Origin: a virus
Length of the DNA: 64,000 bases
Virus record (IMG/VR): IMGVR_UViG_3300036861_000275
Coordinates: 28,313-92,312 of that record
Direction: 5' to 3' (one strand)
The notes beneath the pieces were generated by a model. It saw nothing but the letters and a program-made list of their open reading frames with translations. It was not told where the DNA came from and searched no databases. Position 1 is the stretch's first letter; the number at the start of each line of letters is the position of its first letter. Both the position numbers and the translations under genes were made by a program. Positions 27,245 to 54,280 of this stretch are shown here, in pieces.

Positions 27245-27268
27245 GATGGTCTCTATTGTACCCTGGTA

Positions 27269-31022: not shown

Positions 31023-32567
31023 TTACGCGAGCACGTCTAGTCCGATATAGAGCTTCATTAGCGATACATCGGCCGCAGTTGTAGTCAACCCGCTAAATCC
31101 CCAACGGTAGGCAATCCCTTTCAAACGCTTCGGCCTGGTGCGTCGCGGCGTGCTCTCGCCGAGAATGAATGGGAGCACCTGAGGCAGAACCGCGGGCTGC
31201 TCCACCAGACTAAAACTGATGACTTGAGACTTCTGTCCATCCCGGAGCGCCGTGATGGTGTGGGTTGCAGCATTTCTAGGGTCATATTCGAGCTGAAGGA
31301 ACCGACCGGCAGTCCTGCGGCCTACGGCCTGTCCTAGCACCGCAGCGAAGTCCGTATCCCACATGTTCCAGTAGAAAGTAAAAGCGGCGCCGTCCTGGCT
31401 CCTATTCGTGCGGTCCAGTTCCCATAGTTTCCCGTTAGCATCGGTCATGGCTGGGATCTCGAAGTTGCCGCTCTTCCGCATAAAAAGAGCCTCATTACGG
31501 TCACGGTCCGAATAGGACCACTTCTCTCCAATCTCCGCCACGTCCAGAACGTCCATGTGTATCCGGACATTCTTGGTTGTAAGACCGGCCTGATGGCATG
31601 CCAACATGGCAACAGCCTTCTGCCCGTAGTAGACGAGTTGCGCCGTGGCCAATTGCGCCAGATTGATCCGCTCCCGCATGAAAGCGCCCAACTTCTTCGC
31701 AGTGATGTCAGATGCCCGCACTGAACCTGACGCCTGCGTCTGGGAGATGAGATGCCAGCCGCCGGCAGGGTCTATAGATAAAACATCGTCCTCCAACCCG
31801 GTCACGTTATAAGGTCCGACGGCACCGGCAGGCCCGACTTGGGTTACGGTCCAGTTAGCCTCGGCCGCATTCCTGGTGTCTAACAGGAACACCCCTCGAG
31901 GGAACTTCCATATGACCAGGAAGCCCTTGTATGACCACATTGCCGAGATATACTCGCCTACGCCGGGGAAGATAGGCCGCTGGTACGGGAATGTCAGGAA
32001 GTCCTCGTGATCCAGTATGGAGGATCGGTATACCCTGTCGCCGAGCGCGCCCCACAAGAAGCCGGCGTGCGCACAGAGACAGAACGGCTGATTGGCCCCA
32101 GACCAGTCTGCTGGAGGGTTAGAGATGGTAGTCATCACGGTGCCGTCGCCAGAGAGTACCCTGACCGCATTGACGCGGTCCGCCATGAACAACTTCACGT
32201 TGTTCCCGAGCTGCTCGGCGCCACCCTTTACGAAGTGCGGTATCTGACCGGACGTCGTTAGACCCGAGACTAGAGCCGCGCTGTATGTACCATTCCCGTC
32301 GTCTTTACGGACCGTGCCATCAGCAAACGCCGTCACGGTGCGCTGCTGTGTCTGGGTAGGGAAGTAGTCGAAGGATGCCAGCCCAGACGAGCCTATAGCT
32401 ACACCAAGCGACGCTGCGCCACCTTCAGTCCGGAGCGTGCGGTCTTCCATAGATACGTTTCTCAATAGGCGCGCTGACCCTAACGGCACTCTATCGGCAT
32501 TCCGAATGCCGTAGATACCGTCCTTGCCGAGAACCACCGGCACTATTAGGGTGTTTTCGTACGGCAT
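31023..32567 (-). CDS. tail nozzle/stabilization protein (P22 gp10-like position)
   Basis: 514 aa beta-rich, 'LRNV...' N-terminus, RVYRS...DF; position in module. Confidence 0.65.
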   Translation of the reverse strand: MPYENTLIVPVVLGKDGIYGIRNADRVPLGSARLLRNVSMEDRTLRTEGGAASLGVAIGSSGLASFDYFPTQTQQRTVTAFADGTVRKDDGNGTYSAALVSGLTTSGQIPHFVKGGAEQLGNNVKLFMADRVNAVRVLSGDGTVMTTISNPPADWSGANQPFCLCAHAGFLWGALGDRVYRSSILDHEDFLTFPYQRPIFPGVGEYISAMWSYKGFLVIWKFPRGVFLLDTRNAAEANWTVTQVGPAGAVGPYNVTGLEDDVLSIDPAGGWHLISQTQASGSVRASDITAKKLGAFMRERINLAQLATAQLVYYGQKAVAMLACHQAGLTTKNVRIHMDVLDVAEIGEKWSYSDRDRNEALFMRKSGNFEIPAMTDANGKLWELDRTNRSQDGAAFTFYWNMWDTDFAAVLGQAVGRRTAGRFLQLEYDPRNAATHTITALRDGQKSQVISFSLVEQPAVLPQVLPFILGESTPRRTRPKRLKGIAYRWGFSGLTTTAADVSLMKLYIGLDVLA

Positions 32568-32568
32568 T

Positions 32569-32793
32569 TTACTTGGCGTCCTTCGCCTTCAAAAGGAGCT
32601 CCACTTGAGCCTGTAGCCCCTCGATCTGCTTCAGGAGCCGGCTGATAACCTGAGCCGCTTCCGTCTCTCCGCGGGTCCGGCTGGCGGAGAGCTGGTCGAG
32701 CGCGACCTTGGCGGTACGCAGATTGTCCTCGCACGTGTCGGCGGCCCACGCCAAGCTGGGCCACAAGAGGAGCGCTACAAGGAGACGCTTCAT
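32569..32793 (-). CDS. signal-peptide-bearing coiled-coil protein (spike chaperone-like position)
   Basis: MKRLLVALLLWPSLAWA|AD; coupled to spike gene. Confidence 0.65.
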   Translation of the reverse strand: MKRLLVALLLWPSLAWAADTCEDNLRTAKVALDQLSASRTRGETEAAQVISRLLKQIEGLQAQVELLLKAKDAK

Positions 32794-35129
32794 GGCATCA
32801 CCACCGTGGATTCGTGAACGTAACCCCCGCCCAAAAACGTGTCGAGCGCTTTCATCATCCGCTCCATGTCGATCCTGAGTTTGCGCCCTGTCGTGGTGTC
32901 GACCGAGTCGAAGATCCACTCTCGCGTGTAATGATCGTGAGGCGATAGGAGAGTGGCGCCGCCGGCAGCATCCATGACCCGCAGTTCTCCGGCCGTGGAG
33001 TATAGCGAGACGCCGTTAGCCAGAGTGCCGACCGGAGCCGTGCCGTCGAAGATATTCAGGCAATTGGTACAAGTCGTGGCCGATCGACCGAATGTGCCGC
33101 CGATGTAGAGGCTCGATTCCGTGCTGTTTTGGAGATAGACCGAGCCCGTGTTACGCAACTCGAAGAGCGCGCTGCCACCGGTGCCGCCGAATGATAGGCC
33201 GGAACCGCCAGTGATGTGCCTTATCTGTAACGGGTTGTTCGTGCCGGCCGGGTCGACGAAAAACATCCATCCGTCACCGTTACCGACCATAGCTAGCGCG
33301 GTGCGTCTAGCCGCTCCAGAACTGGCTGTCGAGTGAATGGTCAGTATCGGTGTGGAGGCTCCCGTGATGGTGCCAAGGTTGGCAGTCGTTTGTGCCACGA
33401 GGGCCTGATTGGTGCCGGATGACTTATAGTACGAACCGACTCGCAAACCAGCCGATGCTGACCCTACGACGGGAATCGTAGTCCCTGTAAACGTGTCTGT
33501 GATCATGTAGCTTCCAGCCGAGCGCAGCATGTCTCGCAGCATTACGCTCCCGGATGTATGGATAGCTACGGAGATATTCTGGTCCGTCCCGGAAAAAGTA
33601 AGCCCGTCCGCCATCAATTCCGTGTTGTTACCCAGGAAGACCCCGATGAGGCCGTTCTCCAGGTTGACTGTCTTCATGTGAATCCCGGAACCACCGGCGG
33701 CTTGATTCTCGACCCAGACGTTAGCTAGATAGGACGTCGTGGTTCCGTTGCTATTGGTTATAGACGTCCGTCTGATGAGGCCGTTGTTTGAAAACGTATT
33801 AACATAGATACCAATGGTATTGCGCGTGCCACCGTTTGCGGTACGCCAGAGCTCGCTGTCGGAGATGTCCCAGTTAGCGTTGTAGATTGTGGACGAGGTG
33901 TCCTGGAAAAGAGCCCCGTGAGTGATAAAGCCTCGGATACGCACCCGGCGTAGACCGGAATTCTCATTAGCCCGATCAGATCTAACGGCGATGTTAACTA
34001 CGTGATTCAGGTTCATCTGGAGATCTTCCAGCCGCGTATTAAACGCCAGAGCGGTCCCGTTGGTGCTACCAAGCAAGACTGCCGGCGTCGAAATAGCTAT
34101 AGCCGTCGTGTAGTGAAGTGTCGTCTGTTGTGGCCCGCGGCCGCGTAGCACGACGCCGTTCTGGATGATCAACTGTCCACTTACCACGCAGTCTCCGGCC
34201 GGCAAATCTACATAGTTACCGAAGCTCATATTACCGATCGTGTGGGCGGCTTTGACTAGGGCCGAGCGTATCGCAGCGGTATCATCGGTTGCGCCGTCAC
34301 AACGGATGCCGTGGTCCGCAGCGTTAATCACATCATTCGTAGCAGGTGGAGTTAGGCCGAAGAGTAATGCGCGCACGTGGCGCGTACTCGAGCTCTGAGG
34401 GCCTGCGGTAGCGTGCAGAGCCACGGCAAAGGCGCCAGCCGGCGGCTGGCTCGAGGAGGCGTGATACCTCGTCGCCGCAGCCAACTTGGCCGTACCGGAA
34501 GTCACGAGATACGCCCCAACATGTACATCGGTGGACACCCCGATGTGGTGAATGCCGAAGAACGCGACCCGGCCATATGCAGCGTGGGCGATGCCCTCAA
34601 GGGCAACTCCCACTATCCCGCGCTGGGCGTAGGCGGTTGTGGTGGTTATCCTCGGGCCGGGAGTGTCCTGCGATGTCGCTGCCGGACCCAGGTAGTTAGC
34701 TAAGGGTGCTCCTGGGTCCAACGTGATGACGTCGCCGGCCGAGATCCCGCCTCCGGAGTGATTTTCTGCCCGCATAGCAGGCACGTACCACTGAGAGACC
34801 TGGGCGCTATCCATGGCCTGGCCAAGGCGTAAAAGCAGACCGCGTAGCCCCTGGATTTCACCCGTCAGGGATGGGGTTAGATCGGGATTCAATCCGACCT
34901 GGAGTGGCTGGCGCGTCGTCTGGAGAGCGGCTACAGATGTTGAATGGCTAGCCGTACAATCCGCGTTCGCATTGGTCACGCCGACAGTAGTAAAGGACGT
35001 CGTCAGGTCGCCGGCAGTCAATTGATCGCCGGTCTGCCAGGAGCGGAAGATCGAGCAGTTGCCGTTGACGGCCCATGCAACCCCTGGGAATAGTGTCAGG
35101 ATGGCTAATACGAGCATAACCTTCTTCAT
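32790..35129 (-). CDS. tail spike/fibre with pectate-lyase-like beta-helix, N-terminal signal peptide
   Basis: INAADHGIRCDGATDDTAAI...VDLPAG...VLRGRG; start MKKVMLVLAILTLFPGVAWA|V. Confidence 0.8.
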   Translation of the reverse strand: MKKVMLVLAILTLFPGVAWAVNGNCSIFRSWQTGDQLTAGDLTTSFTTVGVTNANADCTASHSTSVAALQTTRQPLQVGLNPDLTPSLTGEIQGLRGLLLRLGQAMDSAQVSQWYVPAMRAENHSGGGISAGDVITLDPGAPLANYLGPAATSQDTPGPRITTTTAYAQRGIVGVALEGIAHAAYGRVAFFGIHHIGVSTDVHVGAYLVTSGTAKLAAATRYHASSSQPPAGAFAVALHATAGPQSSSTRHVRALLFGLTPPATNDVINAADHGIRCDGATDDTAAIRSALVKAAHTIGNMSFGNYVDLPAGDCVVSGQLIIQNGVVLRGRGPQQTTLHYTTAIAISTPAVLLGSTNGTALAFNTRLEDLQMNLNHVVNIAVRSDRANENSGLRRVRIRGFITHGALFQDTSSTIYNANWDISDSELWRTANGGTRNTIGIYVNTFSNNGLIRRTSITNSNGTTTSYLANVWVENQAAGGSGIHMKTVNLENGLIGVFLGNNTELMADGLTFSGTDQNISVAIHTSGSVMLRDMLRSAGSYMITDTFTGTTIPVVGSASAGLRVGSYYKSSGTNQALVAQTTANLGTITGASTPILTIHSTASSGAARRTALAMVGNGDGWMFFVDPAGTNNPLQIRHITGGSGLSFGGTGGSALFELRNTGSVYLQNSTESSLYIGGTFGRSATTCTNCLNIFDGTAPVGTLANGVSLYSTAGELRVMDAAGGATLLSPHDHYTREWIFDSVDTTTGRKLRIDMERMMKALDTFLGGGYVHESTVVMP

Positions 35130-35992
35130 GATCCGTACGCCCCCCTGTAGCCAGTTGGCGACTTGGTCTGGAGCCCATGTAGGCGCTGTTTCTCGTAAGC
35201 AATGCACGCCTCTATCATACGCTCAGCACGTGCCAAAGTGTCGTTCTCTCTACGGTCAAACTTCATACCGATGAGAATCGCTAAAGCCTTCACTGCTAGA
35301 GCCGGTCTCCAGAATGACGGTAGTGCTAATGTGGTCGTTCCCGAAGGATCATCGGGGACGAACGAGTACGGGTACTCGACCCGCTTCACGCTGGTCGGAT
35401 AACTGGACAGCCGTATCGTTCTTTGGCCGATTCGAGCAAAGTACTCTGGGATGTCGCTGGCGTGCGGTACCGGGAAGCTGGTCCGCATGTATTCCTCGCT
35501 CTTGAGCGCCACGAACTTGCTGGTCGGATACCACAGGCCGTCCACGAAGAGCCCCAGGTCGGCGTTCAGCGTGTACTCGTCCTGGTAGATCGTGCATGCC
35601 TGTCCGGCCGCTAGCGCTTCCTGAGCTACGTCCAGGGTGAAGGCCGTCTCATTGGCATTGTGTGCCGTGATGATCCCGTACCATTCCTTCCCGGTAGGCT
35701 TTAGCTTCCTGCCCAGTAAGGACGAGGTCGGCGCCGAGGATAGCACTCCGGCAGCGCTGGCGCCGGCCGCTGCGATCGTCACAGTCAGAGATGTCACCTG
35801 GGCTGTCGTAATGAAGGAGCCTACGGGACTTTTACGCCATTCTAGAATTGGCCACCGTGTCGCAATATCACGCCACGCCTCGATGATGGCGTCGGCAGCC
35901 AGAGAGTAGAAGTCCCCTGTTGTGTCTGTGCTGTCCTCATAACCTCTTTCCAGGATATGTGCCCGAATCTGCTCGAACGTGTCGAATGCCAT
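35126..35992 (-). CDS. head-tail adaptor-like protein
   Basis: TFEQIR N-terminus, P.YF...IRL..YP, LP.FW..AL; position. Confidence 0.65.
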   Translation of the reverse strand: MAFDTFEQIRAHILERGYEDSTDTTGDFYSLAADAIIEAWRDIATRWPILEWRKSPVGSFITTAQVTSLTVTIAAAGASAAGVLSSAPTSSLLGRKLKPTGKEWYGIITAHNANETAFTLDVAQEALAAGQACTIYQDEYTLNADLGLFVDGLWYPTSKFVALKSEEYMRTSFPVPHASDIPEYFARIGQRTIRLSSYPTSVKRVEYPYSFVPDDPSGTTTLALPSFWRPALAVKALAILIGMKFDRRENDTLARAERMIEACIAYEKQRLHGLQTKSPTGYRGAYGS

Positions 35993-35995
35993 ACG

Positions 35996-36349
35996 TTATC
36001 CTAAGATCGGCCCGAATCCAGGCGGAGGCGCCTCGGGAGTGGGCTTCGCCGGCACCGGTCGATGAATCGCTTCAGCCGCCTCGGGCGCTAGACCATTTTC
36101 CTTGAGGATTGAGATGAGCCAACTCTCTAACTCTTTCGAGAGCGTCTCTGGCAGCTTTTCCATGATCCCAGGTTCTAGCGCCATTCTAAGTTGCTGTTGC
36201 TCTGGCAGTCCGTCTCGAATCATGGCCACAGATATCTCGCCACCAGACTTCCCGCCTACTGGCGCGCGTAGGATTAGCTCTACTAGAGTGACGCCCGCGT
36301 ACGGCTTGCTTCCTCGTTCCGGTTGCGGTTTGAATTGCCATGAAAGCAT
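35996..36349 (-). CDS. hypothetical protein
   Basis: TAATG-coupled start MLSWQFK; the longer track ORF overlaps the previous gene. Confidence 0.6.
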   Translation of the reverse strand: MLSWQFKPQPERGSKPYAGVTLVELILRAPVGGKSGGEISVAMIRDGLPEQQQLRMALEPGIMEKLPETLSKELESWLISILKENGLAPEAAEAIHRPVPAKPTPEAPPPGFGPILG

Positions 36350-37533
36350 TACGGGGCACTCCTGTAGGACATACCGCCGGATACTCTGCCGCCGGCTACG
36401 AAAATGCACACCGCGTTGCCGGCTGTGTCGGTTGATAGGAAGGGAAATGGCGACGTCGCCGACAATGTCGCGCTGCTGACCGGGACACCGTTCGCCGCCA
36501 CCGTTGAGCCTAGCATGGCTCGCGTGTTCGTGGCGCATGTGGCTCCGGTGCCTTCCACTAGGGAGAAGTTCGCGCTGGCCGTTCCGCCGGCAATGATCGA
36601 GCAGATGAAGATTTTCTGCCCGGTCGCGCCATGAGCAATGATCCCGTCCGTCGACTGTGAGAATCCCACGTAGGTGTGGCATACCAGGTTGTTTGTACCG
36701 GTCCCGCCGGCCACGTGCAGTGGCGCCGATGCCGTCGTGGCAATGTGCGTCACGGACGAGATATGACTGAGTGTCCATGGCGTACCGCCCTGATGCGACA
36801 GTATGATCCACGGAACCCCTTCTGCCGCTTGGACTATACGTAGCGGAATAGTGCTGGAGGCGACGTGTACTACGCCAGATATGTGACTCACGGTCTGCGT
36901 GTTCCATGACCCGCCTTGGTGGGCCACAACCGGAATCGGGAACGTGGAGGCATTCAGGTGGGCGATGGTCGGCAGCGGGAGACCGGCTATGGCGATGTGG
37001 GCCCTGACGTCCAACGGCGCTCCCTGCGGAGAGATCACCACCGGCACAGGGCCGGTCGACGTGTCGATAGTGGTCCCGCCGGTAGACGACACCTGCGGGT
37101 CGCCGGACGTCATGATGCCGAATACGGAGACCGAACCTGGTCCAGAAAACTCCCGTAGATCGGTACGGAACCAGTACGATCCCGAGATGTTACATCGCCA
37201 TTGAAGATCCGCGGTGCCGACATTGGCCGGCGTGAATTTGACCGATACGTGTGCCGTATTGCCACTGACAGGCAGGCACCGCACGTTTGTGTAGTGAATA
37301 TTGTTCAGGGACGTCTGGAAGACCACCGTGGCGGCCGGCGAGGAGCCAGCAGGCACAACTATCTGAACTGTGGCAACAGTGAACCCGGCTACGTGTGCCA
37401 CAGTACCGGTCGAAGCGACTGTGGCAGCAGACTGTAATATCCAAGTTTTCGCGACGCCCTGACTACTGGCTTCTCGGCCGGCCAGAGCCAGCACGAGCCC
37501 CAGGATGAGTGCCAGCCAGGAGCGTGGCTTCAT
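36349..37533 (-). CDS. signal-peptide-bearing beta-rich protein with His motifs (paralog of 37545..38495)
   Basis: MKPRSWLALILGLVLALAG; S/T/G/V-rich; C-terminal 4-Cys domain. Confidence 0.75.
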   Translation of the reverse strand: MKPRSWLALILGLVLALAGREASSQGVAKTWILQSAATVASTGTVAHVAGFTVATVQIVVPAGSSPAATVVFQTSLNNIHYTNVRCLPVSGNTAHVSVKFTPANVGTADLQWRCNISGSYWFRTDLREFSGPGSVSVFGIMTSGDPQVSSTGGTTIDTSTGPVPVVISPQGAPLDVRAHIAIAGLPLPTIAHLNASTFPIPVVAHQGGSWNTQTVSHISGVVHVASSTIPLRIVQAAEGVPWIILSHQGGTPWTLSHISSVTHIATTASAPLHVAGGTGTNNLVCHTYVGFSQSTDGIIAHGATGQKIFICSIIAGGTASANFSLVEGTGATCATNTRAMLGSTVAANGVPVSSATLSATSPFPFLSTDTAGNAVCIFVAGGRVSGGMSYRSAP

Positions 37534-37544
37534 CGGGCTAGACC

Positions 37545-38495
37545 TTACTGGCCGCCTACTCGGTCAGGATAGGCTCCGTAAGTCACTATGCCGGAGACTC
37601 TCGACGTAGCGTTTTGTTTATGGACACACAGCGGATTCCCGGCGGTCTGCGTTGAAAGCCATGAAGTTCCCTGGACTGCCCCCACAATCGGCGTCGTGCT
37701 CACATGCCATACGGCGGCCAGGTGAGGCGCTGAGGCTCCCGGCCATACACCTAGCGTGCCGGTCTTGCATCCCGCAGTCGTCCCTTCTACCAAAACTACT
37801 TGTTCGTCCTGCGTCGGCGTGAGGACAATGCCGCAGATGTAGAGTCTCTGACTGTTGCCTGTGTGGGCAACAATGGTCTCCGGGGCCGACGTGACAAAGT
37901 TAGCCTGTGTGTGGCAGTAGAATCCTGTCTTGCTGCTGGCGCCCTGGTGGGAGACCGTCGGACTATACGTGGCTCGCGAAAGTCTGATTCTGGAAACTAC
38001 GCTGCCCGAAGTAAAGTCGGCTATGCGTGTGCGGAATGCTTGGACGCCGTTGATAGGGACCACGTAGACCCCGGCTGCCGTCGCTGTGAGTATCGGAACC
38101 CCGTTATTATCGACAGCTGCCCTGGATACAAAGGTGGAGCCATCATTAGCCGTCTCGAACACGACACCGATGTTGGCCGACATAGCCGTCAACTGCACAA
38201 TCGCGGTGCTGTAACCCTCCAGGTTCGTGATGGTGTTGGCGGCGCCCAAAGAGGAGAGGGTGGAGTTCTGAGCTAGATCACCTACGGCCGCTACGTTCAT
38301 GTGGGTCACGCTGGAAACGTGATTAACGATTTGAACGTGTGCTACCACGGCGAGCGGCGTGGCGCCTGAGCTAATGCTAGAGACCGAGAGCACATTGACC
38401 CAGTCTACGGTCCTGGTAACTGTCGCCGCGCCCATCAGTAGAATGGCCGCCAGAGCGACGGCAAAGACCTTTTCGCGCCTCGTCCATGCCTTCAT
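37545..38495 (-). CDS. signal-peptide-bearing beta-rich protein (paralog of 36349..37533)
   Basis: MKAWTRREKVFAVALAAILLMGA; same C-terminal CHT/IC/LVEGT/TAGN..C/RVSG domain. Confidence 0.75.
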   Translation of the reverse strand: MKAWTRREKVFAVALAAILLMGAATVTRTVDWVNVLSVSSISSGATPLAVVAHVQIVNHVSSVTHMNVAAVGDLAQNSTLSSLGAANTITNLEGYSTAIVQLTAMSANIGVVFETANDGSTFVSRAAVDNNGVPILTATAAGVYVVPINGVQAFRTRIADFTSGSVVSRIRLSRATYSPTVSHQGASSKTGFYCHTQANFVTSAPETIVAHTGNSQRLYICGIVLTPTQDEQVVLVEGTTAGCKTGTLGVWPGASAPHLAAVWHVSTTPIVGAVQGTSWLSTQTAGNPLCVHKQNATSRVSGIVTYGAYPDRVGGQ

Positions 38496-38839
38496 TAGCG
38501 CGTCTCCTCGAGAATCTGGAGTTGTACGGTGCCAGGAGCTCGGCAATCGAGACTGCCGACGTAACTATCTAGTGACAGCGTAGACCCAGCATGGAGCGTG
38601 AACGGTTGAGACTCGCCCCTACTGCTGTTCCATAACACCACATGGGTCGTGCCGACGTTCTCGACGCTGATGGAGACACGCTCGGCGTTGTGCGAAAACA
38701 CGTTCACCGGATTGGCCAACAGACAGTTGACGTTCGAGGTGCTGATATTCCGGCCCTTCTGGAGCGTAGGTTGCGCAGCGCCCTGGGCCGTCCACACCAC
38801 CAAGCCAATGACCAGTAATGCCGCCAGAATGCGCTTCAT
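38495..38839 (-). CDS. small signal-peptide-bearing beta-rich protein
   Basis: MKRILAALLVIGLVVWTAQGAAQP; two Cys. Confidence 0.7.
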   Translation of the reverse strand: MKRILAALLVIGLVVWTAQGAAQPTLQKGRNISTSNVNCLLANPVNVFSHNAERVSISVENVGTTHVVLWNSSRGESQPFTLHAGSTLSLDSYVGSLDCRAPGTVQLQILEETR

Positions 38840-39339
38840 GGGGCCACCTTAGCCAAAGCAAGGCCGAACCGCGTGATTCCGCTCATGTCAGTCTCCACTT
38901 CTGGGTAGGACACCCCGATCAGCATCAGTCTGACAGCTCCGTGAGCCATGTTGTATGCTCGCCCGATACTGGCCTGCGTTTCTCCAGAGGCGTGCCTACG
39001 CCGCGCCTCTTTGATCTCTACGTCCGTAAGTTTGTTCGTGCCGCGACGTCTGATAGCCGCATCGCGCATGTTGTCGGCCTGTGTTCCCCTAACTAGATGA
39101 TTAGGGCTGAAACACAACGGTCTATCGCAGGTGTGACGCACATTGGGGCCTTTGCCTGGTAAACCTATGGCATCCGCCATCACGCGATGCACGAGTCCTG
39201 TCTTGTCATGGCCAAGACCGATACGACCGTATCCCTGCTTACTCTTGAATCCAGTGAACAACCAACACCCGGTCGCCGGATCAAAGACCATCTTACTGAG
39301 TAGCCGATCCATGACCGGCGCCGGTTTTGGTCCTCTCAT
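38836..39339 (-). CDS. HNH homing endonuclease
   Basis: GCWLFTG...GYG...HRV...RHTCDRPLCFSPNHL..GT..DN..D plus C-terminal HTH. Confidence 0.9.
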   Translation of the reverse strand: MRGPKPAPVMDRLLSKMVFDPATGCWLFTGFKSKQGYGRIGLGHDKTGLVHRVMADAIGLPGKGPNVRHTCDRPLCFSPNHLVRGTQADNMRDAAIRRRGTNKLTDVEIKEARRRHASGETQASIGRAYNMAHGAVRLMLIGVSYPEVETDMSGITRFGLALAKVAP

Positions 39340-39755
39340 TTCTTGCCGCCGCCAAACCAGGGCGAGTCGGAATTCCAGCCGTAATCGCTTCCCTTGCCGA
39401 TACCCAGCACGTCACCGGCCACGTCACTCTTTTCTTCCGAGGCGAAGTGGTCGCCAGCTGCGACGCCGCCCCACTGAGACAACGCGCCCTCCTGGGTATC
39501 GGGAGACTCCAGGGCCATGTCCTCAGAGTTGTCGTAGTTGGCACCGCCACCCTGCCCAGGGTTCTGCTTGCCGGTGTCCGCCTTGCCCTTGACGTTGAGC
39601 GGCTTGTAGTTGCCGACGCCGCCGAATTCCCCGATGGCTTGGTCCTGTGAGCCTGGCTCGTACGCTGCTCGCTGATCCTTGGCATAATCCTTGACCTGCT
39701 TGGTCATCGGCCCCTCAGCGGGTCCGTTGAGTCCGCCACCCATGCGCTTCGCCAT
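39336..39755 (-). CDS. hypothetical Gly/Asp-rich protein
   Basis: AGGAGG RBS; coupled to next gene. Confidence 0.65.
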   Translation of the reverse strand: MAKRMGGGLNGPAEGPMTKQVKDYAKDQRAAYEPGSQDQAIGEFGGVGNYKPLNVKGKADTGKQNPGQGGGANYDNSEDMALESPDTQEGALSQWGGVAAGDHFASEEKSDVAGDVLGIGKGSDYGWNSDSPWFGGGKK

Positions 39756-39782
39756 TGATTGATCCTCCTAGTTGATGCTACG

Positions 39783-40319
39783 TTACTCTGCGCCGATCGC
39801 GTCGCTCGCCGTGGCCCCGGTCCGGATCGCAGAGAAATCTTCGTCGGCAGCCCGCAACGCCCTGGTGCGACGGATGAAGTATTCGTCCAGAAGGGTCGCG
39901 CTCTTTCCGCCGGCCAGAATCTCGAACTCGTGGTTCCCTTCCGCGTCCTTCGACTTGTGAAACGCCCAGAGATGGTCCGGGTGCTTGACAATACAGAATG
40001 GACGTCCGCGGACCTTGTGATTCGGATGATCCATCGGAATCAACTTCTTCTCCATGAGCCGCCCGCGCAGGTCATGGCTAGAGAAGTCGTAGGGGGTGAA
40101 GCCAGAATCGGCAATCTCTTCGACCGCTCCCCCGTCATCGAATCTAGACACGCTGATAGTGCCCTTGAGCGGCTGTTGACGGTTGCGACGCGAGCCGAGA
40201 TACACCACTCTGGCGTTCACCACGCCGAGCCGGCCCTCGATCAGCCCCGCCCCTACTGTCCGCTCGTCGTCCTTCTGGTCCATCACTTCCTCGACGGTCT
40301 TGTCCGTGATCTTAGGCAT
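39783..40319 (-). CDS. hypothetical protein in head module
   Basis: GAGGAG RBS; TAATG coupling. Confidence 0.7.
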   Translation of the reverse strand: MPKITDKTVEEVMDQKDDERTVGAGLIEGRLGVVNARVVYLGSRRNRQQPLKGTISVSRFDDGGAVEEIADSGFTPYDFSSHDLRGRLMEKKLIPMDHPNHKVRGRPFCIVKHPDHLWAFHKSKDAEGNHEFEILAGGKSATLLDEYFIRRTRALRAADEDFSAIRTGATASDAIGAE

Positions 40320-40681
40320 TACGCGATCTCCTCTTCCCTCCAGGCATATCCTGAAGGCTCTGGGTTAACTGCGTACCGTCTCTCTAGCATGTTCTGAGCG
40401 TGCGTGCCGCGATACAAATGCTCTGGATTACAGCATGGCCGGTTATGGCAGGCGTGCATAATGAAAGGCCCGTCGCCAGGCAGGCCGACTAGATCCGCCA
40501 TCAGGCGGTGAGTGAATATGTGGCGCACTACATTAAGACGCTGAATATCAACTACGCCGTATCCATCACGATCCAGTCTCCCCGTAAACACCCAACAGCT
40601 CCCCTCTACGCGAACACGCGCTACAAGACGTTCGATCGTCCACGGAATTGATGGTCGGCCCATCGGCTTTCCGGTTCTCAT
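40319..40681 (-). CDS. HNH endonuclease
   Basis: CWVFTG...GYG...HRL...HACHNRPCCNPEHL..GT...N. Confidence 0.88.
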   Translation of the reverse strand: MRTGKPMGRPSIPWTIERLVARVRVEGSCWVFTGRLDRDGYGVVDIQRLNVVRHIFTHRLMADLVGLPGDGPFIMHACHNRPCCNPEHLYRGTHAQNMLERRYAVNPEPSGYAWREEEIA

Positions 40682-41988
40682 GCGTGCAACGCTTTCCCAG
40701 CGGCTTTGTGTTGCTGCGCCTTCTCACGCGCGCCACGCGCTCTGCTCTTATCCAGTGACAGCATCCCACTAGCCGACTTGTCGAGCGCGAGCCAAGCCGC
40801 CGCGGAATACTGCAAACGAGCCAGCGAGAAAGCCGCGATGGCAGCTTGCGCTGGTAGATGGAACGTCGGACTACCGAAACTATTCACCACCGCCACAACG
40901 CCGACGGACAGCCAGGCCATGTCCATGGATAGGGGTCGCTTCCACCAGTTACGCCTGACCATCTCATTATTCTTCTGCCAGACAATTCTGGCGGATACTC
41001 CAGCCTGAAGAGCAATCCCCAGCCCTAACACCAGCCCAATCAGGCCGAGCTCGAAAAGCAATTGGTATGGCTCATTGTGGGCCTGTAGCGTCGCAAACGC
41101 CTCGACTTTGCCGGATACGGCGCTCAGTTTCGCGTTGTATTGATCGGCCCAGACTCGCCAGTCGCCAAAGCCTTGACCGATGAGAGGGTACCGGATCAGT
41201 TCAGGCCAGATCGCCTGCCACACTTCTCGGCGTCCAGAGAGTCGCCATTCATGGACTGTCATGACCCAGCTCGCCGCCCCGGTCGCTAGACCAATCACGA
41301 AGTACCTCGTCTTACGCCCGAGATCGGGCCAGATGGCCACAATGATGCCGGCGAAGGCCGACAGAACAGGCCCAGCTGAATGAGAGACCACGATAGGGAT
41401 CAGGATGGCTACCGCGGCCAGCGGGCCAAGAAGGGCCCACATTATCGGAAGCGTCAGGGCCATGATCGAGCCCCAGTAGTTAGGATGTGTCAGGAGCCCC
41501 ATCGCGCGCCCTGTTTGATCCGGCAGAACCCAAGCCATCCACGGATAGATATGGAATAGATTGAGGTAGCCGAGGACCAGCTCGAAACCGACACCAGCGG
41601 CCAGGACCCAGCAGAAGAGACGAGTTCGTGGGATGTCCATGTCCCGCGCAACGGCGTACAGGTAACTCACCAGAAGCGTCAGCAACAGAAGTTGTACCGA
41701 CCGGATTTGAAAGCTATTGATGCCCGCACGGACAACTGCCCATGCGATCAGAGCCGCCAGAGGGATCGAAGCCTTCGCCACCCGAAATATCAGGGCAGCT
41801 GCCCCGGTCAGGACGAGCCACAGAATCGGGATAGCCCGCTCCAGAAGCGGTGTCTGGCCCATCGGGAATGGAGAGATGGCGGTATAACCTATGACCGGGA
41901 CCAACAGCAGGAAACCGAGCGGCAACCATAGCCAAGACATTACGTCCTCAGCCTTGCGCCACTCGAAGGACCGCGGACTCAGATTCAT
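40678..41988 (-). CDS. O-antigen ligase / O-oligosaccharyltransferase family (Wzy_C) polytopic membrane protein
   Basis: About 10-12 hydrophobic segments; G.LTHPN, SGR..VW, PLIGQGFG, AHNEPYQLLFELGLIG, SPTFH. Confidence 0.85.
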   Translation of the reverse strand: MNLSPRSFEWRKAEDVMSWLWLPLGFLLLVPVIGYTAISPFPMGQTPLLERAIPILWLVLTGAAALIFRVAKASIPLAALIAWAVVRAGINSFQIRSVQLLLLTLLVSYLYAVARDMDIPRTRLFCWVLAAGVGFELVLGYLNLFHIYPWMAWVLPDQTGRAMGLLTHPNYWGSIMALTLPIMWALLGPLAAVAILIPIVVSHSAGPVLSAFAGIIVAIWPDLGRKTRYFVIGLATGAASWVMTVHEWRLSGRREVWQAIWPELIRYPLIGQGFGDWRVWADQYNAKLSAVSGKVEAFATLQAHNEPYQLLFELGLIGLVLGLGIALQAGVSARIVWQKNNEMVRRNWWKRPLSMDMAWLSVGVVAVVNSFGSPTFHLPAQAAIAAFSLARLQYSAAAWLALDKSASGMLSLDKSRARGAREKAQQHKAAGKALHA

Positions 41989-42044
41989 ACTCTTCCTTTC
42001 TGACTTCCCGCCGGACCTCTTCCGGCGGCTTGTGGTTGTGAAGC

Positions 42045-42078
42045 GACGGCGGCCCCCTCTGATGAGAGAGCCGCCGTC
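42045..42078 (-). terminator. GC-rich hairpin after capsid-associated genes (terminator/attenuator-like, weak U-tract)
   Basis: GACGGCGGC...GCCGCCGTC stem; second hairpin CCGCCGGA-N5-TCCGGCGG at 42008-42028. Confidence 0.5.
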
Positions 42079-42093
42079 ATGTAGCCTAGGCGC

Positions 42094-42972
42094 TTACTGA
42101 CCAGCCGGCGACCTATTGAGTGACGTGTGGAACTTCGACCAGTACACGAACACGTGAGCGTTGATCGGGCTCGCCGTCGAGCCGTTCGAGGTGAACGTGA
42201 CGTCGAGTCCGCTAGCCACGTGGATGAGGTACGGAACCTCGATAGCCACGTGATTTGCGCCCGCTGGACGGTAGATCAAAGCCGCCCCGCGATGCGTGGT
42301 GGAGGCGCTACCGCCGCTGGAGAAGCTGGGCCGGATGAATTCGGCGCCGCCAGTGCCAACGTTGGTCGCAGACCCGGTCAGGTCGATCGGGCCGGCAAGG
42401 GAATTGGAGAAGCCCACCACATGGTTCCCAGTGAAGCCGATGCTCAGGTGGGAGGTCTGTCCCGTGATGGGAGACAGGTTCTGGATGATGATGTCCGTGA
42501 TCAACGCGCCCTGCGGCAGGGAGGTGCCGACACTCTGGTACACAGTGCCGGTGCGCACGTTGACCGCGAACCTGGAGATGTTACGAGCCGCGTCACGCGG
42601 AATGACGATCTTGTGCGTGAAACGATCCAGCTTGCCGACGCTGGTCGAGCCGCCGTAAGCGTACACGCAGTACAGATCGACAGGGTCCGAGATGGTGCTG
42701 TAGAAGTGTAGCCGGCCGTTGGCATCGCTGAACGTTGGGTTGTCCTTGATGCCCTGGAGCGCCACCGTGGCGTGCAACAGAGCGGCGCCGTGCACATTCG
42801 TCCGATAGACCGAACACTGTACGTCGCCGACACCACCGGTGTTCGTCTTGTAGACTCGGCCCTGTTCGTCGACCGTGGTCCACCAGAAGTAAAACGGGGA
42901 CTGCGCTGCCGCGGGCGCCGCGCAGAGGATCAGGGCGGCCAGCGAGGCCGCCAGCCACTTGAGCGTCTTCAT
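42094..42972 (-). CDS. capsid-adjacent (decoration-like) protein with signal peptide
   Basis: Directly after MCP, similar high-GC3 codon usage; MKTLKWLAASLAALILCAAPAAA|QS. Confidence 0.7.
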   Translation of the reverse strand: MKTLKWLAASLAALILCAAPAAAQSPFYFWWTTVDEQGRVYKTNTGGVGDVQCSVYRTNVHGAALLHATVALQGIKDNPTFSDANGRLHFYSTISDPVDLYCVYAYGGSTSVGKLDRFTHKIVIPRDAARNISRFAVNVRTGTVYQSVGTSLPQGALITDIIIQNLSPITGQTSHLSIGFTGNHVVGFSNSLAGPIDLTGSATNVGTGGAEFIRPSFSSGGSASTTHRGAALIYRPAGANHVAIEVPYLIHVASGLDVTFTSNGSTASPINAHVFVYWSKFHTSLNRSPAGQ

Positions 42973-42994: not shown

Positions 42995-43975
42995 TTAGGC
43001 ACCCAGGTTGGTGCGGGCCGTGCGAAGCGCGATGACCGCGTGATCTTGGGCATTGAAGACCGATTTCTTAAAGCCCCAGATCGCTCCTATCGCATAGCCA
43101 GGACTGTTACCGTAATCAAACTCCTTCTCCCATGCGAATGGCCGGCGCCCCCACGCGAATAACCCGGACTGCATGCCCAGGAAGTAGTTGGAGGCGTAAG
43201 CTACGGCGCCACCGCCGCCATCAGTCGCGACGGGCACCTTCTCATGCGCATGTACGACAGTTCCGCGCCACATACCGTAGCGGCCGGTGAAAATCTTGTT
43301 CTCGTCGCCGCGGAGCCCGGCATCCCGTTGGGTACCGTGCCACGTGGTGTCCTGCTCCAGGTCGAAAGCCACGTCGGTGTGGATGACCAGGACGAAATAC
43401 GCCTCGCCGTTGATCTTGACGGGCCAGATCTTCGGATCGGCCTTTGCCGCCCGCCCAACACAGCGGTCGATGAGGGCCGGGGTGATTACGTCAGCAGCGG
43501 TCAGTGCGCCCAGGTTGGCGCGGTTACCGCCGAACTGAATCGTGCTGGAGTTGGTGTCTATCTTGCTGAAGATGTCGTCGTCGATGACCTCAGCGAGCCA
43601 CGTCTTCAGGTGGCCCTTGGCCTGGGTCGGCTGGTCGTAGGCGGTACGCTTCATGGACAACTGGCCCTTGAGTCGAACAGCGTTACGGCGCTGGTCGAGG
43701 GTCACGGTGTCCTGAAACGTGTTGAGCAGCTCTTCCGATCCTTCCAGCTGGTTGTCACCAGTCACGCCAGCCCCAGTCAGCTTGCGGCTGAGGGAGTAGT
43801 TGTAGACGTCGCCCGGGAGACCTTCCAGGTCACGCCTAACTTCGATGATGGCGTTTTGGTCATTTTCCTTCATGAAACGGCCCCAGAAAATCTCTCTAGG
43901 CAGTTCGACCCAAAGTCGCTTTGCCCAGAGCTGGACTCGCTCAGCGCTTGCAGTGGTGTATTCCGTCTCGGCCAT
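42995..43975 (-). CDS. major capsid protein (N4-gp56/DUF4043-like)
   Basis: GD......L.G.GVTGD..LEG.EE, L..W, IFTG..GMW.G.V.H, E..DYGN. Confidence 0.88.
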   Translation of the reverse strand: MAETEYTTASAERVQLWAKRLWVELPREIFWGRFMKENDQNAIIEVRRDLEGLPGDVYNYSLSRKLTGAGVTGDNQLEGSEELLNTFQDTVTLDQRRNAVRLKGQLSMKRTAYDQPTQAKGHLKTWLAEVIDDDIFSKIDTNSSTIQFGGNRANLGALTAADVITPALIDRCVGRAAKADPKIWPVKINGEAYFVLVIHTDVAFDLEQDTTWHGTQRDAGLRGDENKIFTGRYGMWRGTVVHAHEKVPVATDGGGGAVAYASNYFLGMQSGLFAWGRRPFAWEKEFDYGNSPGYAIGAIWGFKKSVFNAQDHAVIALRTARTNLGA

Positions 43976-48675: not shown

Positions 48676-51129
48676 TTATCCTCCGTGCGCAGCTATTACT
48701 TCTGCGTATAACTTCCGCTCCCAGTCCGTGGCGGCGTTAGGCAAGGAATCCTTGAGTGCTTGGAGACCCTGTCGTGCTATGAATGACTCCACTCTGCGAA
48801 CGCGTTCGGTGTGAAGTGCCTGCTCGGCCGCGCTTACTGGAGCCGCGAGGTGCTGATTCGTGGTATTCGAGGTTGTGGCTACCGGACTACCGTAATCAAA
48901 ATGAAATGGTCCCCCCAGGATGTCGTTAAACTGTTGGCTGAGAACGTAAGCCTGCCCGTTCTTCTGGGTCTTAGATACCTGCTTTGCCCACTGAGGCATC
49001 TCAATGGCTGTTGGTTGATTAGCTATCTCAGCCAAACCGGAGGGGAGCGGCTGGCCAGGTTTAGCTTGTGCCAACCAGTGTTGTAGATCCTGTGCTTGAG
49101 CGGCGCCGTGTGACGGATCGAGCCCGGACATAACCAGCAGATTACGCCATTTCTCGGCGTCATTTACGCCTACCACGTTCTGGAAATCCTTGGCTCTGTT
49201 TGGGTCCTCGATGCCGGCCTTCGTGAAGTACTTGTCACGAACCCACTTCGCTGCCCAGTTTCTCGCCTGCGCTAGGTCGACCATCTGCTTTGCGTACGGG
49301 TCATCTTGGTTCATCGTGCCACTCAGGAACCGTTGCTTGGCAGCAATGAGGTCTTTGGTGCCCTGCGTGAGGTTGGCTGTACCTCCGACGCGCTGCACAG
49401 CGTCGTCTATTTCCCACTGATTACCCGATCCGAGTAGCTGTTGAAGAACGCCGCGTTTCGTGACTTCTCGCTTGTAGCGCGTGTCTACATCCTTCGGGAT
49501 TTCTATGAAACCCGGCTTCGTCGTGAGGGTCTTGTAGACGTCGCTAGCTTCAGGCGACAGCTCGAGAGCATTGCCGGTCTTGAAGGTGGTGGCCACATTG
49601 CCAGCCTTTGACATCTCTGGGGTTACCCTAGTAGCCCACTTGGTGACGTCGTCCGGCCAGTCTCCATGAAATCTGATGCCGGCTTGCTGGGCGATGGTGC
49701 CCCACTTCTCTTGCGCTGTGCCGGGCAGCTTGTTCCAGTAATCTAAGGCTTCCTTACTCTGAATACCGGCCGGCGTGAAGAAGACGTCGTACATGGCCTG
49801 CGCTGATTGATTCTTCGCGTTAGACTGGTTTACGACGAACTGCCCGAGCGTGGACTTCGTGTCCAGCCTCGGCAGGGACTTCAAGGTGCCGTCCCAGATA
49901 GCCTGTCCTACTGTTGAGCGCGCTTCTTGCGAATCCTGTATGGAGTTTATGTCGCCTCCACGCCGGATGACATCGGTGGGGTGGACTCTCCTGACCGCGG
50001 CCTGGAGCATCGCGTTAACGCCCTGATCAATCTGCCCCTCTTCTCCGTAGAAATTGGCTGCCATCACGTTCGGTGCTGATCCGTTCCTGATCGAGTTAAT
50101 CAGCTCCTCGCGCGTGTACATAACGGGCCCGTCTTTGCGGTTGAATTGTTCCGCAATCAGGCCGTCGGCTATTTCTTCCGGTGTCCAGGCGTTTTTGAGA
50201 GTCTCTGTCATAGCAGGGAATCGTTGAGCCATATCCACAGCCGATTGCTGCCGCTTGGCTTGATAAACAGCAGGTTTATTGAAGATGTTGTATAGCAGGT
50301 TGCCGACCGCGATGACAGCGCCGACGTATGGGATGGCTTCAGATGCCGTAACAAGACCCAACTCGGCCGCGGTCGCGGCAGCAGACGTTGCCACTCCGGC
50401 AGTGCCAAGAGCCTTCTGTGTGTCGTCCATCCTATCCCAGTTCTGGGCAAGGTTAATTGCGCCCGCTACCGTGCCAGCTCCAGATCCGACCGCGCCCAGT
50501 GTATGCGATATATCGGGCGATATATTGATGATGCCTAGGTCTCCAGCGCCTCGGATGACGTCGGTGGCCCCACCTACGCCAGAGGCGGCGCGAGCCACCG
50601 GATTACCGCGCTCGTCTAAAACGGCGTTCGCGATATTCCCGAGTCCGCCGGCTAATCCAAGACCCCCAGTAACTTCTCGCGGCACGAGCGGTTCAGTGCC
50701 GCCGGCCAGCTTGTTCACTAGATTGACAGTGTTTACCCCGGTACGACCCATACCTATCATACTACGGAGCGATTGAAGACCTTCGGGTGGTGCTCCACGC
50801 GAACCAGGCACCGAGATAATGCCTCGAGCTGTGCCCTGGACTAATGGCGCCGGCTGTTGGCCTGGCCGTGGCGCATTCTGGGCTATGCTTGACTGTTGCT
50901 GCGGAGGTCCGGATGCCATAGCGTTGCCGCCCAGTAACTTACTGAGCGGCGTCGTGCCGCTGGGCGCCTCGCTGCCGCCTAATAGGCTTCTCAGTGGAGT
51001 CACGCCGGACGGTGGAGGACCCTGTTTCGAGAGATCCGTGCTAGCAGAACCGGTAAAGATTTCCCGCAGCGGCGTGAACTGACCACTGCCAGACGTCTGC
51101 GTCTGCGGGACCTCGATCGGGTCCGCCAT
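48676..51129 (-). CDS. 817-aa unknown protein with N-terminal repeats and glycine-zipper region
   Basis: TPLRE/TPLRS/TPLSK repeats; GxxxG-rich hydrophobic helices; coupled to GT4. Confidence 0.75.
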   Translation of the reverse strand: MADPIEVPQTQTSGSGQFTPLREIFTGSASTDLSKQGPPPSGVTPLRSLLGGSEAPSGTTPLSKLLGGNAMASGPPQQQSSIAQNAPRPGQQPAPLVQGTARGIISVPGSRGAPPEGLQSLRSMIGMGRTGVNTVNLVNKLAGGTEPLVPREVTGGLGLAGGLGNIANAVLDERGNPVARAASGVGGATDVIRGAGDLGIINISPDISHTLGAVGSGAGTVAGAINLAQNWDRMDDTQKALGTAGVATSAAATAAELGLVTASEAIPYVGAVIAVGNLLYNIFNKPAVYQAKRQQSAVDMAQRFPAMTETLKNAWTPEEIADGLIAEQFNRKDGPVMYTREELINSIRNGSAPNVMAANFYGEEGQIDQGVNAMLQAAVRRVHPTDVIRRGGDINSIQDSQEARSTVGQAIWDGTLKSLPRLDTKSTLGQFVVNQSNAKNQSAQAMYDVFFTPAGIQSKEALDYWNKLPGTAQEKWGTIAQQAGIRFHGDWPDDVTKWATRVTPEMSKAGNVATTFKTGNALELSPEASDVYKTLTTKPGFIEIPKDVDTRYKREVTKRGVLQQLLGSGNQWEIDDAVQRVGGTANLTQGTKDLIAAKQRFLSGTMNQDDPYAKQMVDLAQARNWAAKWVRDKYFTKAGIEDPNRAKDFQNVVGVNDAEKWRNLLVMSGLDPSHGAAQAQDLQHWLAQAKPGQPLPSGLAEIANQPTAIEMPQWAKQVSKTQKNGQAYVLSQQFNDILGGPFHFDYGSPVATTSNTTNQHLAAPVSAAEQALHTERVRRVESFIARQGLQALKDSLPNAATDWERKLYAEVIAAHGG

Positions 51130-52956: not shown

Positions 52957-53166
52957 TTAACGCGGAGTGATGAATGGTGCCTTGATATTATGTTCCACGA
53001 ACTCCCTTTCTACTGGAGAGCACAACATCAAACTGTCTCCATCCAGGTCCTGACCCTGATAGCAGACTAAGTACGGAATTTCGGGCATCTTTACCGCCGC
53101 GCATCCGGTCAGAATCAGCGCCATCCCTAACCCGACCGTGAACCATAGCCAAAACACTCGCTTCAT
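52957..53166 (-). CDS. predicted lipoprotein
   Basis: MKRVFWLWFTVGLGMALILTG|C lipobox; ATGA-coupled to GT2. Confidence 0.65.
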   Translation of the reverse strand: MKRVFWLWFTVGLGMALILTGCAAVKMPEIPYLVCYQGQDLDGDSLMLCSPVEREFVEHNIKAPFITPR

Positions 53167-53879: not shown

Positions 53880-54280
53880 TGGCCAGGAGGACAGCCATCC
53901 GCGGTACACGGGTTCTCTTGATCCATAGGCGGAACTGCTTGGCATAGGGTTGACTTAATCAAGCGCCATCCCCCGTCGCTGCCGCTTAGTGGCTGATCAT
54001 CTGCGTCGATGAGGCGGGATGAGACCACCACGATACATTGCTTGATCGGATTCCAAGACGTCGGTGGCTCTGCGCAGGTGGCCACTTGTATCTCTTGACG
54101 CCAGTTCTTCATACCCTGCGGCGCAAACTCAGGCAGGATAGGAAAAAAGTCGTTCCAGACCACGGTACAGGCAATCAGTAAGACAATGCGGAATTGGTTG
54201 CGGAGCCCGGAATGTGCGCCGGGTGGTTTCTGCCGTATGAGGGCAGCGAGCCACTGCTTGCTCCATCTCCGCGACACCAT
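53876..54280 (-). CDS. hypothetical protein with Cys-containing C-terminal region
   Basis: TGATG-coupled upstream and ATGA-coupled to GT2. Confidence 0.45.
   Translation of the reverse strand: MVSRRWSKQWLAALIRQKPPGAHSGLRNQFRIVLLIACTVVWNDFFPILPEFAPQGMKNWRQEIQVATCAEPPTSWNPIKQCIVVVSSRLIDADDQPLSGSDGGWRLIKSTLCQAVPPMDQENPCTADGCPPGQ

Follow-up and report, generated by a model that had tools for sequence, protein, structure and literature searches.

Assembly of tailed phages is taught as a purely cytoplasmic process, and the locus described here raises the question of what such a phage might be doing with a row of secretory leaders in the middle of its structural genes. The locus lies in a window of 64,000 nucleotides, namely bases 28313-92312 of the 92,312-bp IMG/VR virus record IMGVR_UViG_3300036861_000275, which is a contig from an uncultured podovirus estimated to be about 80% complete; positions given below are those of the window unless stated otherwise. 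Between the genes for the capsid and for a nozzle-like tail protein there are six genes whose products begin with signal peptides, together with a gene for a membrane-bound glycan ligase. The answer favoured here, to which a probability of roughly 0.4 may be attached, is that outer parts of the virion are exported, disulfide-bonded and probably O-glycosylated, and join the particle at lysis. The genes on which the argument turns are as follows.

42995..43975, minus strand: major capsid protein, no signal peptide (Pfam Phage_capsid_3 3.9e-32, PHROG 334)
42094..42972, minus strand: SP1, exported cement-like protein of 292 amino acids (aa), with signal peptide, Ig/transthyretin-like domain and jelly roll
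40678..41988, minus strand: WaaL-fold (Wzy_C, Pfam PF04932) polytopic membrane glycan ligase, 436 aa
38495..38839, minus strand: SP2, exported beta-rich protein of only 114 aa, its Cys pair conserved
37545..38495, minus strand: SP3, exported or membrane-anchored fibre-like protein, 316 aa, a paralogue of SP4
36349..37533, minus strand: SP4, exported fibre-like protein, 394 aa, with a conserved N-domain, HxSSVTHV-type repeats and a variable C-domain
35126..35992, minus strand: head-to-tail adaptor, no signal peptide (Pfam SU10_adaptor 23.9 bits, under the 27-bit cut-off)
32790..35129, minus strand: tailspike, 779 aa, with signal peptide, N-terminal anchor domain, pectate-lyase-type beta-helix and C-terminal domain
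32569..32793, minus strand: SP6, exported coiled-coil protein, 74 aa, between the spike and nozzle-like genes
31023..32567, minus strand: nozzle-like tail protein, no signal peptide, named from its position alone

All six leaders follow ATG starts on the minus strand (at 42972, 38839, 38495, 37533, 35129 and 32793) and are of Sec type, each comprising a basic n-region, an uncharged hydrophobic h-region and a small-x-small cleavage site. They were scored with a heuristic of our own rather than with SignalP, applied to every open reading frame (ORF) of the 92-kb contig and requiring positive charge in the n-region, a hydrophobic stretch of 8-16 uncharged residues, and a small residue at both -3 and -1. 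The five best scores of the whole contig are those of SP1, SP2, SP3, SP4 and the spike, all within window 32.7-43 kb, and the leader of SP6, which had dropped out of the scan at ORF selection, was confirmed by eye. The portal, scaffold-like, capsid, adaptor, nozzle-like and ejection-type proteins have no leader. A preliminary description of the window had drawn just this division, with six signal peptides between capsid and nozzle and none on capsid, portal, adaptor or nozzle, and the ORF scan bears it out. That description had allowed that the true starts might lie downstream; in fact a Shine-Dalgarno-like stretch stands before each ATG (for the spike, instead, an ATGA overlap with the stop of the adaptor gene), and the leaders are kept in homologues.

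Also upheld is the earlier remark that five of the mature proteins are rich in Ser and Thr and contain Cys: Ser and Thr together make up 18-23% of mature SP1-SP4 and the spike, as against 9-13% of most other proteins (17% for the adaptor), and the mature proteins contain two (SP1), two (SP2), four (SP3), six (SP4) and six (spike) cysteines, with one more in SP6. The exported set thus has 21 Cys in about 1970 residues, whereas the ejection-type proteins p589, p656 and a 3979-aa protein (window 15305-31008) have none in 5224.

The leaders also behave as such in evolution, in that the h-region drifts among homologues and the residues immediately following the AxA site stay fixed. In the closest relative, locus L003 (capsid 94% identical), the gene order is the same and all six leaders are present; their hydrophobic cores differ from those of the window and the mature ends are kept, for example VNGNCS of the spike. 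Across 16 related loci, leaders are significantly more frequent among the ORFs downstream of the capsid gene (46 of 175, against 4 of 91; Fisher p = 4.6e-6).

What, then, are the exported proteins? For SP1 the evidence is in part structural. Its leader ends ...APAAA and the mature protein would start QSPFYFWW; in 17 homologues a leader is present, the +1 residue is always Gln, an aromatic motif comes next, and two Cys are invariant. An AlphaFold2 model (mean predicted local distance difference test score, pLDDT, 74.5) shows an Ig/transthyretin-like domain followed by a jelly roll at the C-terminus, and in an exhaustive VIA search the jelly roll (residues 104-258) matched the cement protein of cyanophage Pam1 (7eel_H) with Z 10.0 and a root-mean-square deviation (rmsd) of 2.7 over 114 residues, that of phage GP4 (8h89_J) with Z 9.0, and that of Helicobacter phage KHP40 (7dou_4) with Z 8.6, so that three phage cement proteins are among its top six structural matches. 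Foldseek against the PDB returned only jelly-roll capsid and pilin matches with low TM-scores. By sequence, the nearest solved relatives of the capsid protein are those of GP4 (8h89_A, 3.7e-33) and Pam1 (7eel_A, 4.3e-19), and it is an independent coincidence that the two particles providing the best fold matches for SP1 are the same two that are nearest in capsid sequence. The SP1 gene directly follows the capsid gene, which is the slot of the cement gene in the GP4/Pam1 capsid lineage; in the cultured GP4-like phage Eline the gene in that slot, immediately behind that of the capsid, encodes a homologue of 8h89_J (2e-96) of 157 aa, without a leader. The SP1 jelly roll is also predicted to form a homotrimer, with an ipSAE of 0.78 (best control 0.00), at least 76% of contacts common to the runs and pLDDT of at least 73; the mark used for ipSAE is reached by 20 of 30 solved homo-pairs and by one of 23 solved single chains, and the trimer score may reflect the predictor's memory of solved trimeric jelly rolls.

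The spike carries a beta-helix recognised by Pfam (Pect-lyase_RHGA_epim, 36.4 bits against a cut-off of 27), and its N-terminal domain belongs to a family of fibre anchors. A search of 1.84 billion representative proteins with the first 110 residues of the mature spike gave 94 matches. Leader and both Cys occur together in 66 members of this family and a leader without the Cys pair in none, and 10 members (plus two missed by the motif) have neither. One member without a leader, P0179, has later regions that match tail fibres from cultured phages, namely cyanophages and phages of Klebsiella and Burkholderia. On this distribution of sequences, therefore, a cytoplasmic fibre anchor appears to have gained its leader and its disulfide together. 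The distal domains of the family vary (pectate lyase, glycine-rich or unknown), and a conserved N-terminal anchor with variable distal domains is the usual signature of receptor-binding proteins attached to the particle.

Homologues of SP4 (P0001-P0005, 26-77% identity) all begin with a signal peptide, even those at just 26-33% identity, and differ in their C-terminal domains; the Atlas clusters nearest to SP4 are about 90% viral, and its architecture, as read from the sequence, is of fibre-like build. The C-terminal 129 aa of SP3 are 33% identical to SP4 (E 2e-12) with four Cys aligned, and its leader is kept in L003. In SP2 a leader is present in 7 of 7 homologues and C39 and C99 are invariant. 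SP6 has homologues with leaders in L003 and L057, and SP6-like ORFs occur in L034 and L040. Its single Cys lies 4-5 residues past the cleavage site and its C-terminus is Lys-rich; there is no lipobox, and in size and build it is reminiscent of Braun lipoprotein. Lacking a lipobox and lying outside the lysis cassette, it was ruled out as a lipoprotein or spanin.

The second component of the block is the enzyme. That 40678..41988 encodes a membrane protein of the O-antigen ligase family had been proposed from the outset and is now secure, since the protein scores 33.9 bits with Pfam Wzy_C (cut-off 31.7) and its AlphaFold2 model (pLDDT 89.4) has the WaaL fold: against WaaL 7tpg_B the Foldseek probability is 1.00 and the VIA Z-score 21.1 (rmsd 4.4 over 304 residues), whereas the SEDS proteins FtsW and RodA reach at most Z 12.9, leaving WaaL as the only strong match. 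WaaL-type ligases have the motif H[NSQ]x9Gxx[GTY] with a catalytic His, and in E. coli WaaL two loop Arg, R215 and R288, are essential. In the phage protein the motif is present as H304-N-x9-G315-x2-G318; R253, R278, H246 and H304 are invariant in 25 homologues and R228 is nearly so, and by helix count from the basic N-terminus H304, H246, R253 and R278 would all lie in loops outside the membrane. About 100 homologues were found at 33-80% identity, many of them on contigs of 57-92 kb. The PglL_A motif, which according to Schulz et al. separates PglL from WaaL (PMC3643930), is absent, and the enzyme is therefore to be regarded as a WaaL-fold ligase and not as a member of the PglL family. Of the earlier label “O-oligosaccharyltransferase-like”, then, the WaaL fold and Wzy_C stand and the name itself is not established, the comparison of profiles and structures that had been suggested coming out on the WaaL side (Z 21.1) and giving nothing (no PglL_A) on that of PglL. 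It should also be noted that the gene sits in a phage capsid-to-tail operon and not in a locus for lipopolysaccharide (LPS) core synthesis, and that genes for dedicated O-oligosaccharyltransferases (O-OTases) often adjoin that of their acceptor (21 of 31 pglL homologues; PMC3643930).

The preliminary description had suggested a survey for Wzy_C genes lying near capsid genes and genes for structural proteins with signal peptides, and such a survey showed the co-occurrence throughout the long related loci. All 18 long related loci, with capsids 48-60% identical, have the capsid gene, SP1 with its leader and the ligase, often p178 (see below), then two to five more leader proteins, the adaptor, the nozzle-like protein and, where the locus reaches that far, the spike. 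The ligase follows SP1 in 18 of 18 of these loci, and it is also present on 6 of 6 viral contigs retrieved through SP1 alone. The adaptor is 34-49% identical across related loci, and after it in relatives come proteins 43-49% identical to the nozzle-like protein. Scans of viral and metagenome contigs based on the ligase gave 9 and 77 loci, respectively, many from Hainich groundwater. No member of the ligase subfamily turned up when 185,579 species genomes of bacteria and archaea were scanned by motif, and the sole match in a capsid scan was one 31%-identical relative, in an alphaproteobacterium. The block of exported proteins and ligase is a feature of the clade and no chance insert, and the idea that the ligase is a recent add-on gene was rejected because its presence is fixed across the clade. 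The “provirus” label of one relative, G004, was set aside; its full contig (85.9 kb) is expected to be phage-sized.

A separate lineage (40% G+C, capsid 31% identical), for which only four loci were retrieved, deserves mention in its own right. In L004 (7483-9377) and L005 (11214-13593) the capsid gene is directly followed by genes for two small leader proteins, and these by one for a polytopic membrane protein. That of L005 has about seven hydrophobic segments, an early FISDDN acidic motif and C-terminal tetratricopeptide (TPR) repeats, and in sequence looks like a GT-C glycosyltransferase of PMT/TMTC type; that of L004 has, by eye, ligase-like motifs. This lineage may represent the same strategy, evolved or kept elsewhere.

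If there is a ligase, where does its glycan come from? Three groups of genes in the window could contribute.

51129..52151, minus strand: GT4 glycosyltransferase, cytoplasmic, in the morphogenesis region (Pfam Glycos_transf_1 2e-17)
53163..53945, minus strand: GT2 glycosyltransferase, cytoplasmic (Pfam Glycos_transf_2 1.2e-25)
3131..6445, minus strand: partial nonulosonic-acid pathway, comprising two NeuB, a GNAT and a PseB-like dehydratase, a possible donor supply

The last of these is recognised through Pfam NeuB (3.8e-47 and 5.3e-44), Acetyltransf_3 and Polysacc_synt_2 (7.8e-66), and the complement of GT2, GT4 and nonulosonate genes noted earlier is thus confirmed by Pfam matches. A complete 89-kb relative likewise has two NeuB and a GT4. 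The ligase is the only polytopic membrane protein of the contig, and the glycan donor may often be a host glycan.

As envisaged, portal, scaffold, capsid shell, adaptor, nozzle and ejection proteins would be made in the cytoplasm as the core of the particle, and the Sec pathway would take the outermost, last-added parts: SP1 as cement or decoration protein, the fibre-like SP2-SP4, the tailspike and the coiled-coil SP6. Once these were across the inner membrane, their leaders would be cut off and the conserved Cys pairs oxidised, and the WaaL-fold enzyme would probably transfer a lipid-linked glycan onto Ser/Thr of the exported proteins, this glycan being built on host undecaprenyl carriers and, in some members, perhaps containing phage-made nonulosonic acid. 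Once the holin had breached the inner membrane, the matured parts could meet and bind the DNA-filled particles. We infer that the proteins are exported and cleaved, that disulfides form and that the acceptor is a protein, and likewise when and where the parts attach. The exported proteins are homologues or look-alikes of outer virion parts (cement, fibre and tailspike anchor), and the pattern is a coherent one in that only peripheral virion parts carry leaders. It is well known that the P22 tailspike, lambda gpD and T4 Soc/Hoc can be the last to join finished particles, even in vitro. The fuller proposition for the clade as a whole, namely that its members build the outside of the virion beyond the cytoplasmic membrane, that this layer is O-glycosylated by the phage WaaL-fold ligase and docks when the holin opens, and that some members use sialic-acid-like sugars of phage origin, is put forward more tentatively. 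As to the earlier proposal that decoration and spike proteins are secreted and glycosylated, it is partly supported, by the conserved leaders, the likeness to outer parts, the way Cys tracks leaders and the WaaL fold beside SP1.

A number of points weigh against the export and glycosylation of virion parts. The phage is uncultured and the reading is computational throughout, and even a periplasm is presumed to exist because the endolysin is a small GH24 enzyme and cultured relatives have proteobacterial hosts. The cement-protein Z-scores of 9-10 for SP1 are just moderately over the usual background of 7-8, and profile comparison of SP1 is not significant (hhalign E 0.12 with Klebsiella phage LASTA and 0.13 with Eline, the same region being aligned both times). 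Eight relatives of the spike domain start directly at the mature end and keep both Cys without having a leader, and one relative of SP4, P0003, is annotated with a XepA domain (Pfam PF27453). No match to the PglL_A motif (PF15864) was found with E up to 0.01 in the ligase or with E up to 1 in the whole contig, so that lipid A-core would suit the enzyme equally well as an acceptor; sequence alone cannot separate the two kinds of acceptor. Finally, neither a Bac_transf initiating transferase nor a flippase is visible in the roughly 80%-complete contig, just as the preliminary description had observed, and one 90%-complete relative has no glycosyltransferase (GT) or NeuB and yet keeps the ligase and the exported proteins, from which it also follows that the module of ligase and exported proteins is the constant part.

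Three other explanations draw on these same points. In the main one, the proteins would once have belonged to the virion but would no longer enter particles, working instead in the periplasm or at the cell surface: they might remove or hide receptors, attach to the envelope or assist lysis, and the ligase would put a glycan, partly phage-made, onto lipid A-core, giving superinfection exclusion or less adsorption of progeny to debris. The sole solved relative of the enzyme is indeed an LPS ligase and PglL_A is absent, and phage modification of O-antigen is well known (P22 gtrABC, D3 wzy-beta/iap). XepA of prophage PBSX, moreover, is an exported late protein that is not found in virions (PMC6834076), and its domain on P0003 is the best argument for such envelope remodelling; exported bacterial enzymes with a tailspike fold also exist, WceF being one (PMC7949094). 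We consider this only somewhat less likely than the reading favoured here; against it, a phage whose leader-bearing proteins were set aside would have no recognisable receptor-binding or cement protein, the SP1 gene is found just where the GP4/Pam1 capsid lineage has its cement gene, the spike retains a conserved N-terminal anchor with variable distal domains, and the module is fixed in the capsid-to-tail operon clade-wide, unlike a movable add-on.

It might also be that virion parts are exported for the sake of disulfides or of timing, with no protein glycosylation at all, the ligase serving LPS or another lipid only. Everything that argues for export applies equally here, the link between leader and Cys would make oxidative folding a sufficient reason for it, and the enzyme has no PglL-specific motifs; what renders the idea improbable is that SP1 and ligase adjoin in all 18 long loci and that every SP1-fetched contig carries the ligase, and also that the low-G+C lineage again pairs small exported proteins with a polytopic membrane protein after the capsid gene, one of these having a TPR domain, typical of protein binding. 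That the hydrophobic N-termini are no export signals, and represent mis-called starts, cytoplasmic membrane tethers or assembly helices, seems to us very improbable indeed. The leader calls do come from our own heuristic, the cleavage site of SP3 is weaker and could belong to a signal anchor, and there are the eight spike-domain relatives that begin at the mature end; against this, all six ATG starts have ribosome-binding sites or ATGA coupling, dozens of homologues keep n-, h- and c-regions and the conserved +1 residue, and every leader in the spike N-domain family is accompanied by the Cys pair.

The remaining genes of the late region place the block in its setting. Nearly all genes of the contig are on the minus strand, and the late order runs from the terminase through GT2, GT4, an 817-aa protein, portal, scaffold-like protein and capsid to the leader-rich block and the nozzle-like gene, and on to 589- and 656-aa Cys-free proteins, the 3979-aa protein, a holin-like gene and a GH24 lysozyme. 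Those not listed so far are given here.

57114-58751: large terminase, in the late region
46275-48461: P22-type portal, no leader
44163-45266: scaffold-like protein, no leader
40319..40681, minus strand: HNH homing endonuclease (Pfam HNH_3, PHROG 1872)
39783..40319, minus strand: p178, leaderless conserved protein after the ligase, no family match
39336..39755, minus strand: p139, Gly-rich small protein, no family match; a 115-aa counterpart is in the same place in L003
38836..39339, minus strand: second HNH homing endonuclease (PHROG 1872 at 6e-21)
35996..36343, minus strand: p115, small leaderless protein before the adaptor; homologues are in the same place in L003, L037, L050 and L057

Both HNH genes, which in the window flank the p178/p139 pair, are missing at the corresponding places in L003, and are therefore taken to be recent mobile insertions in the structural operon, outside the module. 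A homologue of p178 directly follows the ligase in L003, L007, L008/L045, L012/L070, L015 and L054. The 817-aa protein (48676-51129, directly upstream of the portal gene) is Cys-free with one hydrophobic segment, and L007 and L008 have proteins of 955-976 aa in a comparable position. No match in PHROGs or Pfam was obtained for p817, p115, p135 or p125; Pfam, PHROG and PDB sequence searches gave no match for the nozzle-like protein; NCBIfam gave none for the ligase, p178, SP1, SP4 or the spike; and PDB sequence searches (XepA included) gave nothing useful for the spike, the ligase, SP1, the nozzle-like protein or the SP2 profile. In the lysis region (14089-15374) there are a holin-like gene with one transmembrane segment and a 143-aa GH24 lysozyme, the C-terminal part of ORF 14089-14655 may be a protein with three such segments, and no spanin pair was recognised. 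Upstream of the window, at contig bases 14185-14754 on the plus strand and thus opposite to most genes, a 180-aa ORF with a lipoprotein-type leader (LSTSA then C) could encode an accessory lipoprotein. The region is present in two soil metagenome DNA runs, and no RNA run is listed as holding it. Cultured relatives are distant, the capsid proteins of LASTA, Bcep22, the GP4 group and 933W being 24-33% identical, and LASTA has neither leaders nor ligase.

Taken together, the findings suggest that the outer layer of the virion is produced beyond the cytoplasm, where it may also receive a coat of sugars. Nothing of the kind has been described for tailed phages, and full-text literature searches found no account of exported virion proteins in them or of a ligase in a structural operon. 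If true, such a two-compartment route would be a new assembly pathway, and would explain disulfides and en-bloc glycans on a phage surface, with relevance to stability, stealth and adhesion. The WaaL/O-OTase enzymes would gain a large branch specific to phages, possibly of use in glycoconjugate engineering, and signal peptides in viral contigs, usually read as a mark of accessory genes or of genes derived from a host, would have to be interpreted differently. A few cloned genes would suffice for a direct test of the idea, despite the phage being uncultured.

Parts of the scheme have counterparts in known systems. In cyanophage Pam1, Ralstonia phage GP4 and KHP40 the cement proteins (7EEL chain H, 8H89 chain J and 7DOU, respectively) share the fold of SP1, whose gene directly follows that of a capsid protein of the same lineage and for which a trimer is predicted; SP1 differs in its Sec signal peptide, its extra N-terminal Ig-like domain and its invariant Cys pair. 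Pairs of O-OTase and acceptor (pilin-PglL; ComP-PglL of Acinetobacter baylyi; PilA-PilO/TfpO of Pseudomonas aeruginosa) likewise have a Wzy_C enzyme beside a co-directional gene for an exported protein, keep the catalytic His motif of Wzy_C and perhaps equivalent loop Arg, and depend on other genes for the lipid-linked donor (PMC3643930), whereas the putative phage pair sits in a capsid-to-tail operon, has a cement-like neighbour rather than a pilin and lacks PglL_A. Closest to the enzyme itself is WaaL of Cupriavidus metallidurans (PDB 7TPG), with which it has in common the fold, Wzy_C, the H-N-x9-G-x2-G motif and perhaps the invariant loop Arg; it is, however, only 14% identical, and its subfamily was found only on phage-sized or viral contigs.

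Glycosylation of mycobacteriophage virions is carried out by cytoplasmic glycosyltransferases that add sugars stepwise. There too, sugar enzymes are encoded near structural genes, as are GT4 and GT2 in the morphogenesis region here, but what is proposed for the present phage is a periplasm-facing ligase acting en bloc on exported acceptors. P22 gtrABC and D3 wzy-beta/iap resemble the present case in that a phage encodes a membrane enzyme acting in O-antigen metabolism, but they belong to the accessory genes of temperate phages, lie outside the virion operon and have no exported virion-like partners. As for export itself, XepA of PBSX, the Sec-exported endolysin of fOg44 and the signal-arrest-release (SAR) endolysins are all late phage proteins that cross the cytoplasmic membrane before lysis (PMC6834076); those, however, are lysis factors absent from the particles, whereas the set exported here resembles cement, fibre and tailspike.

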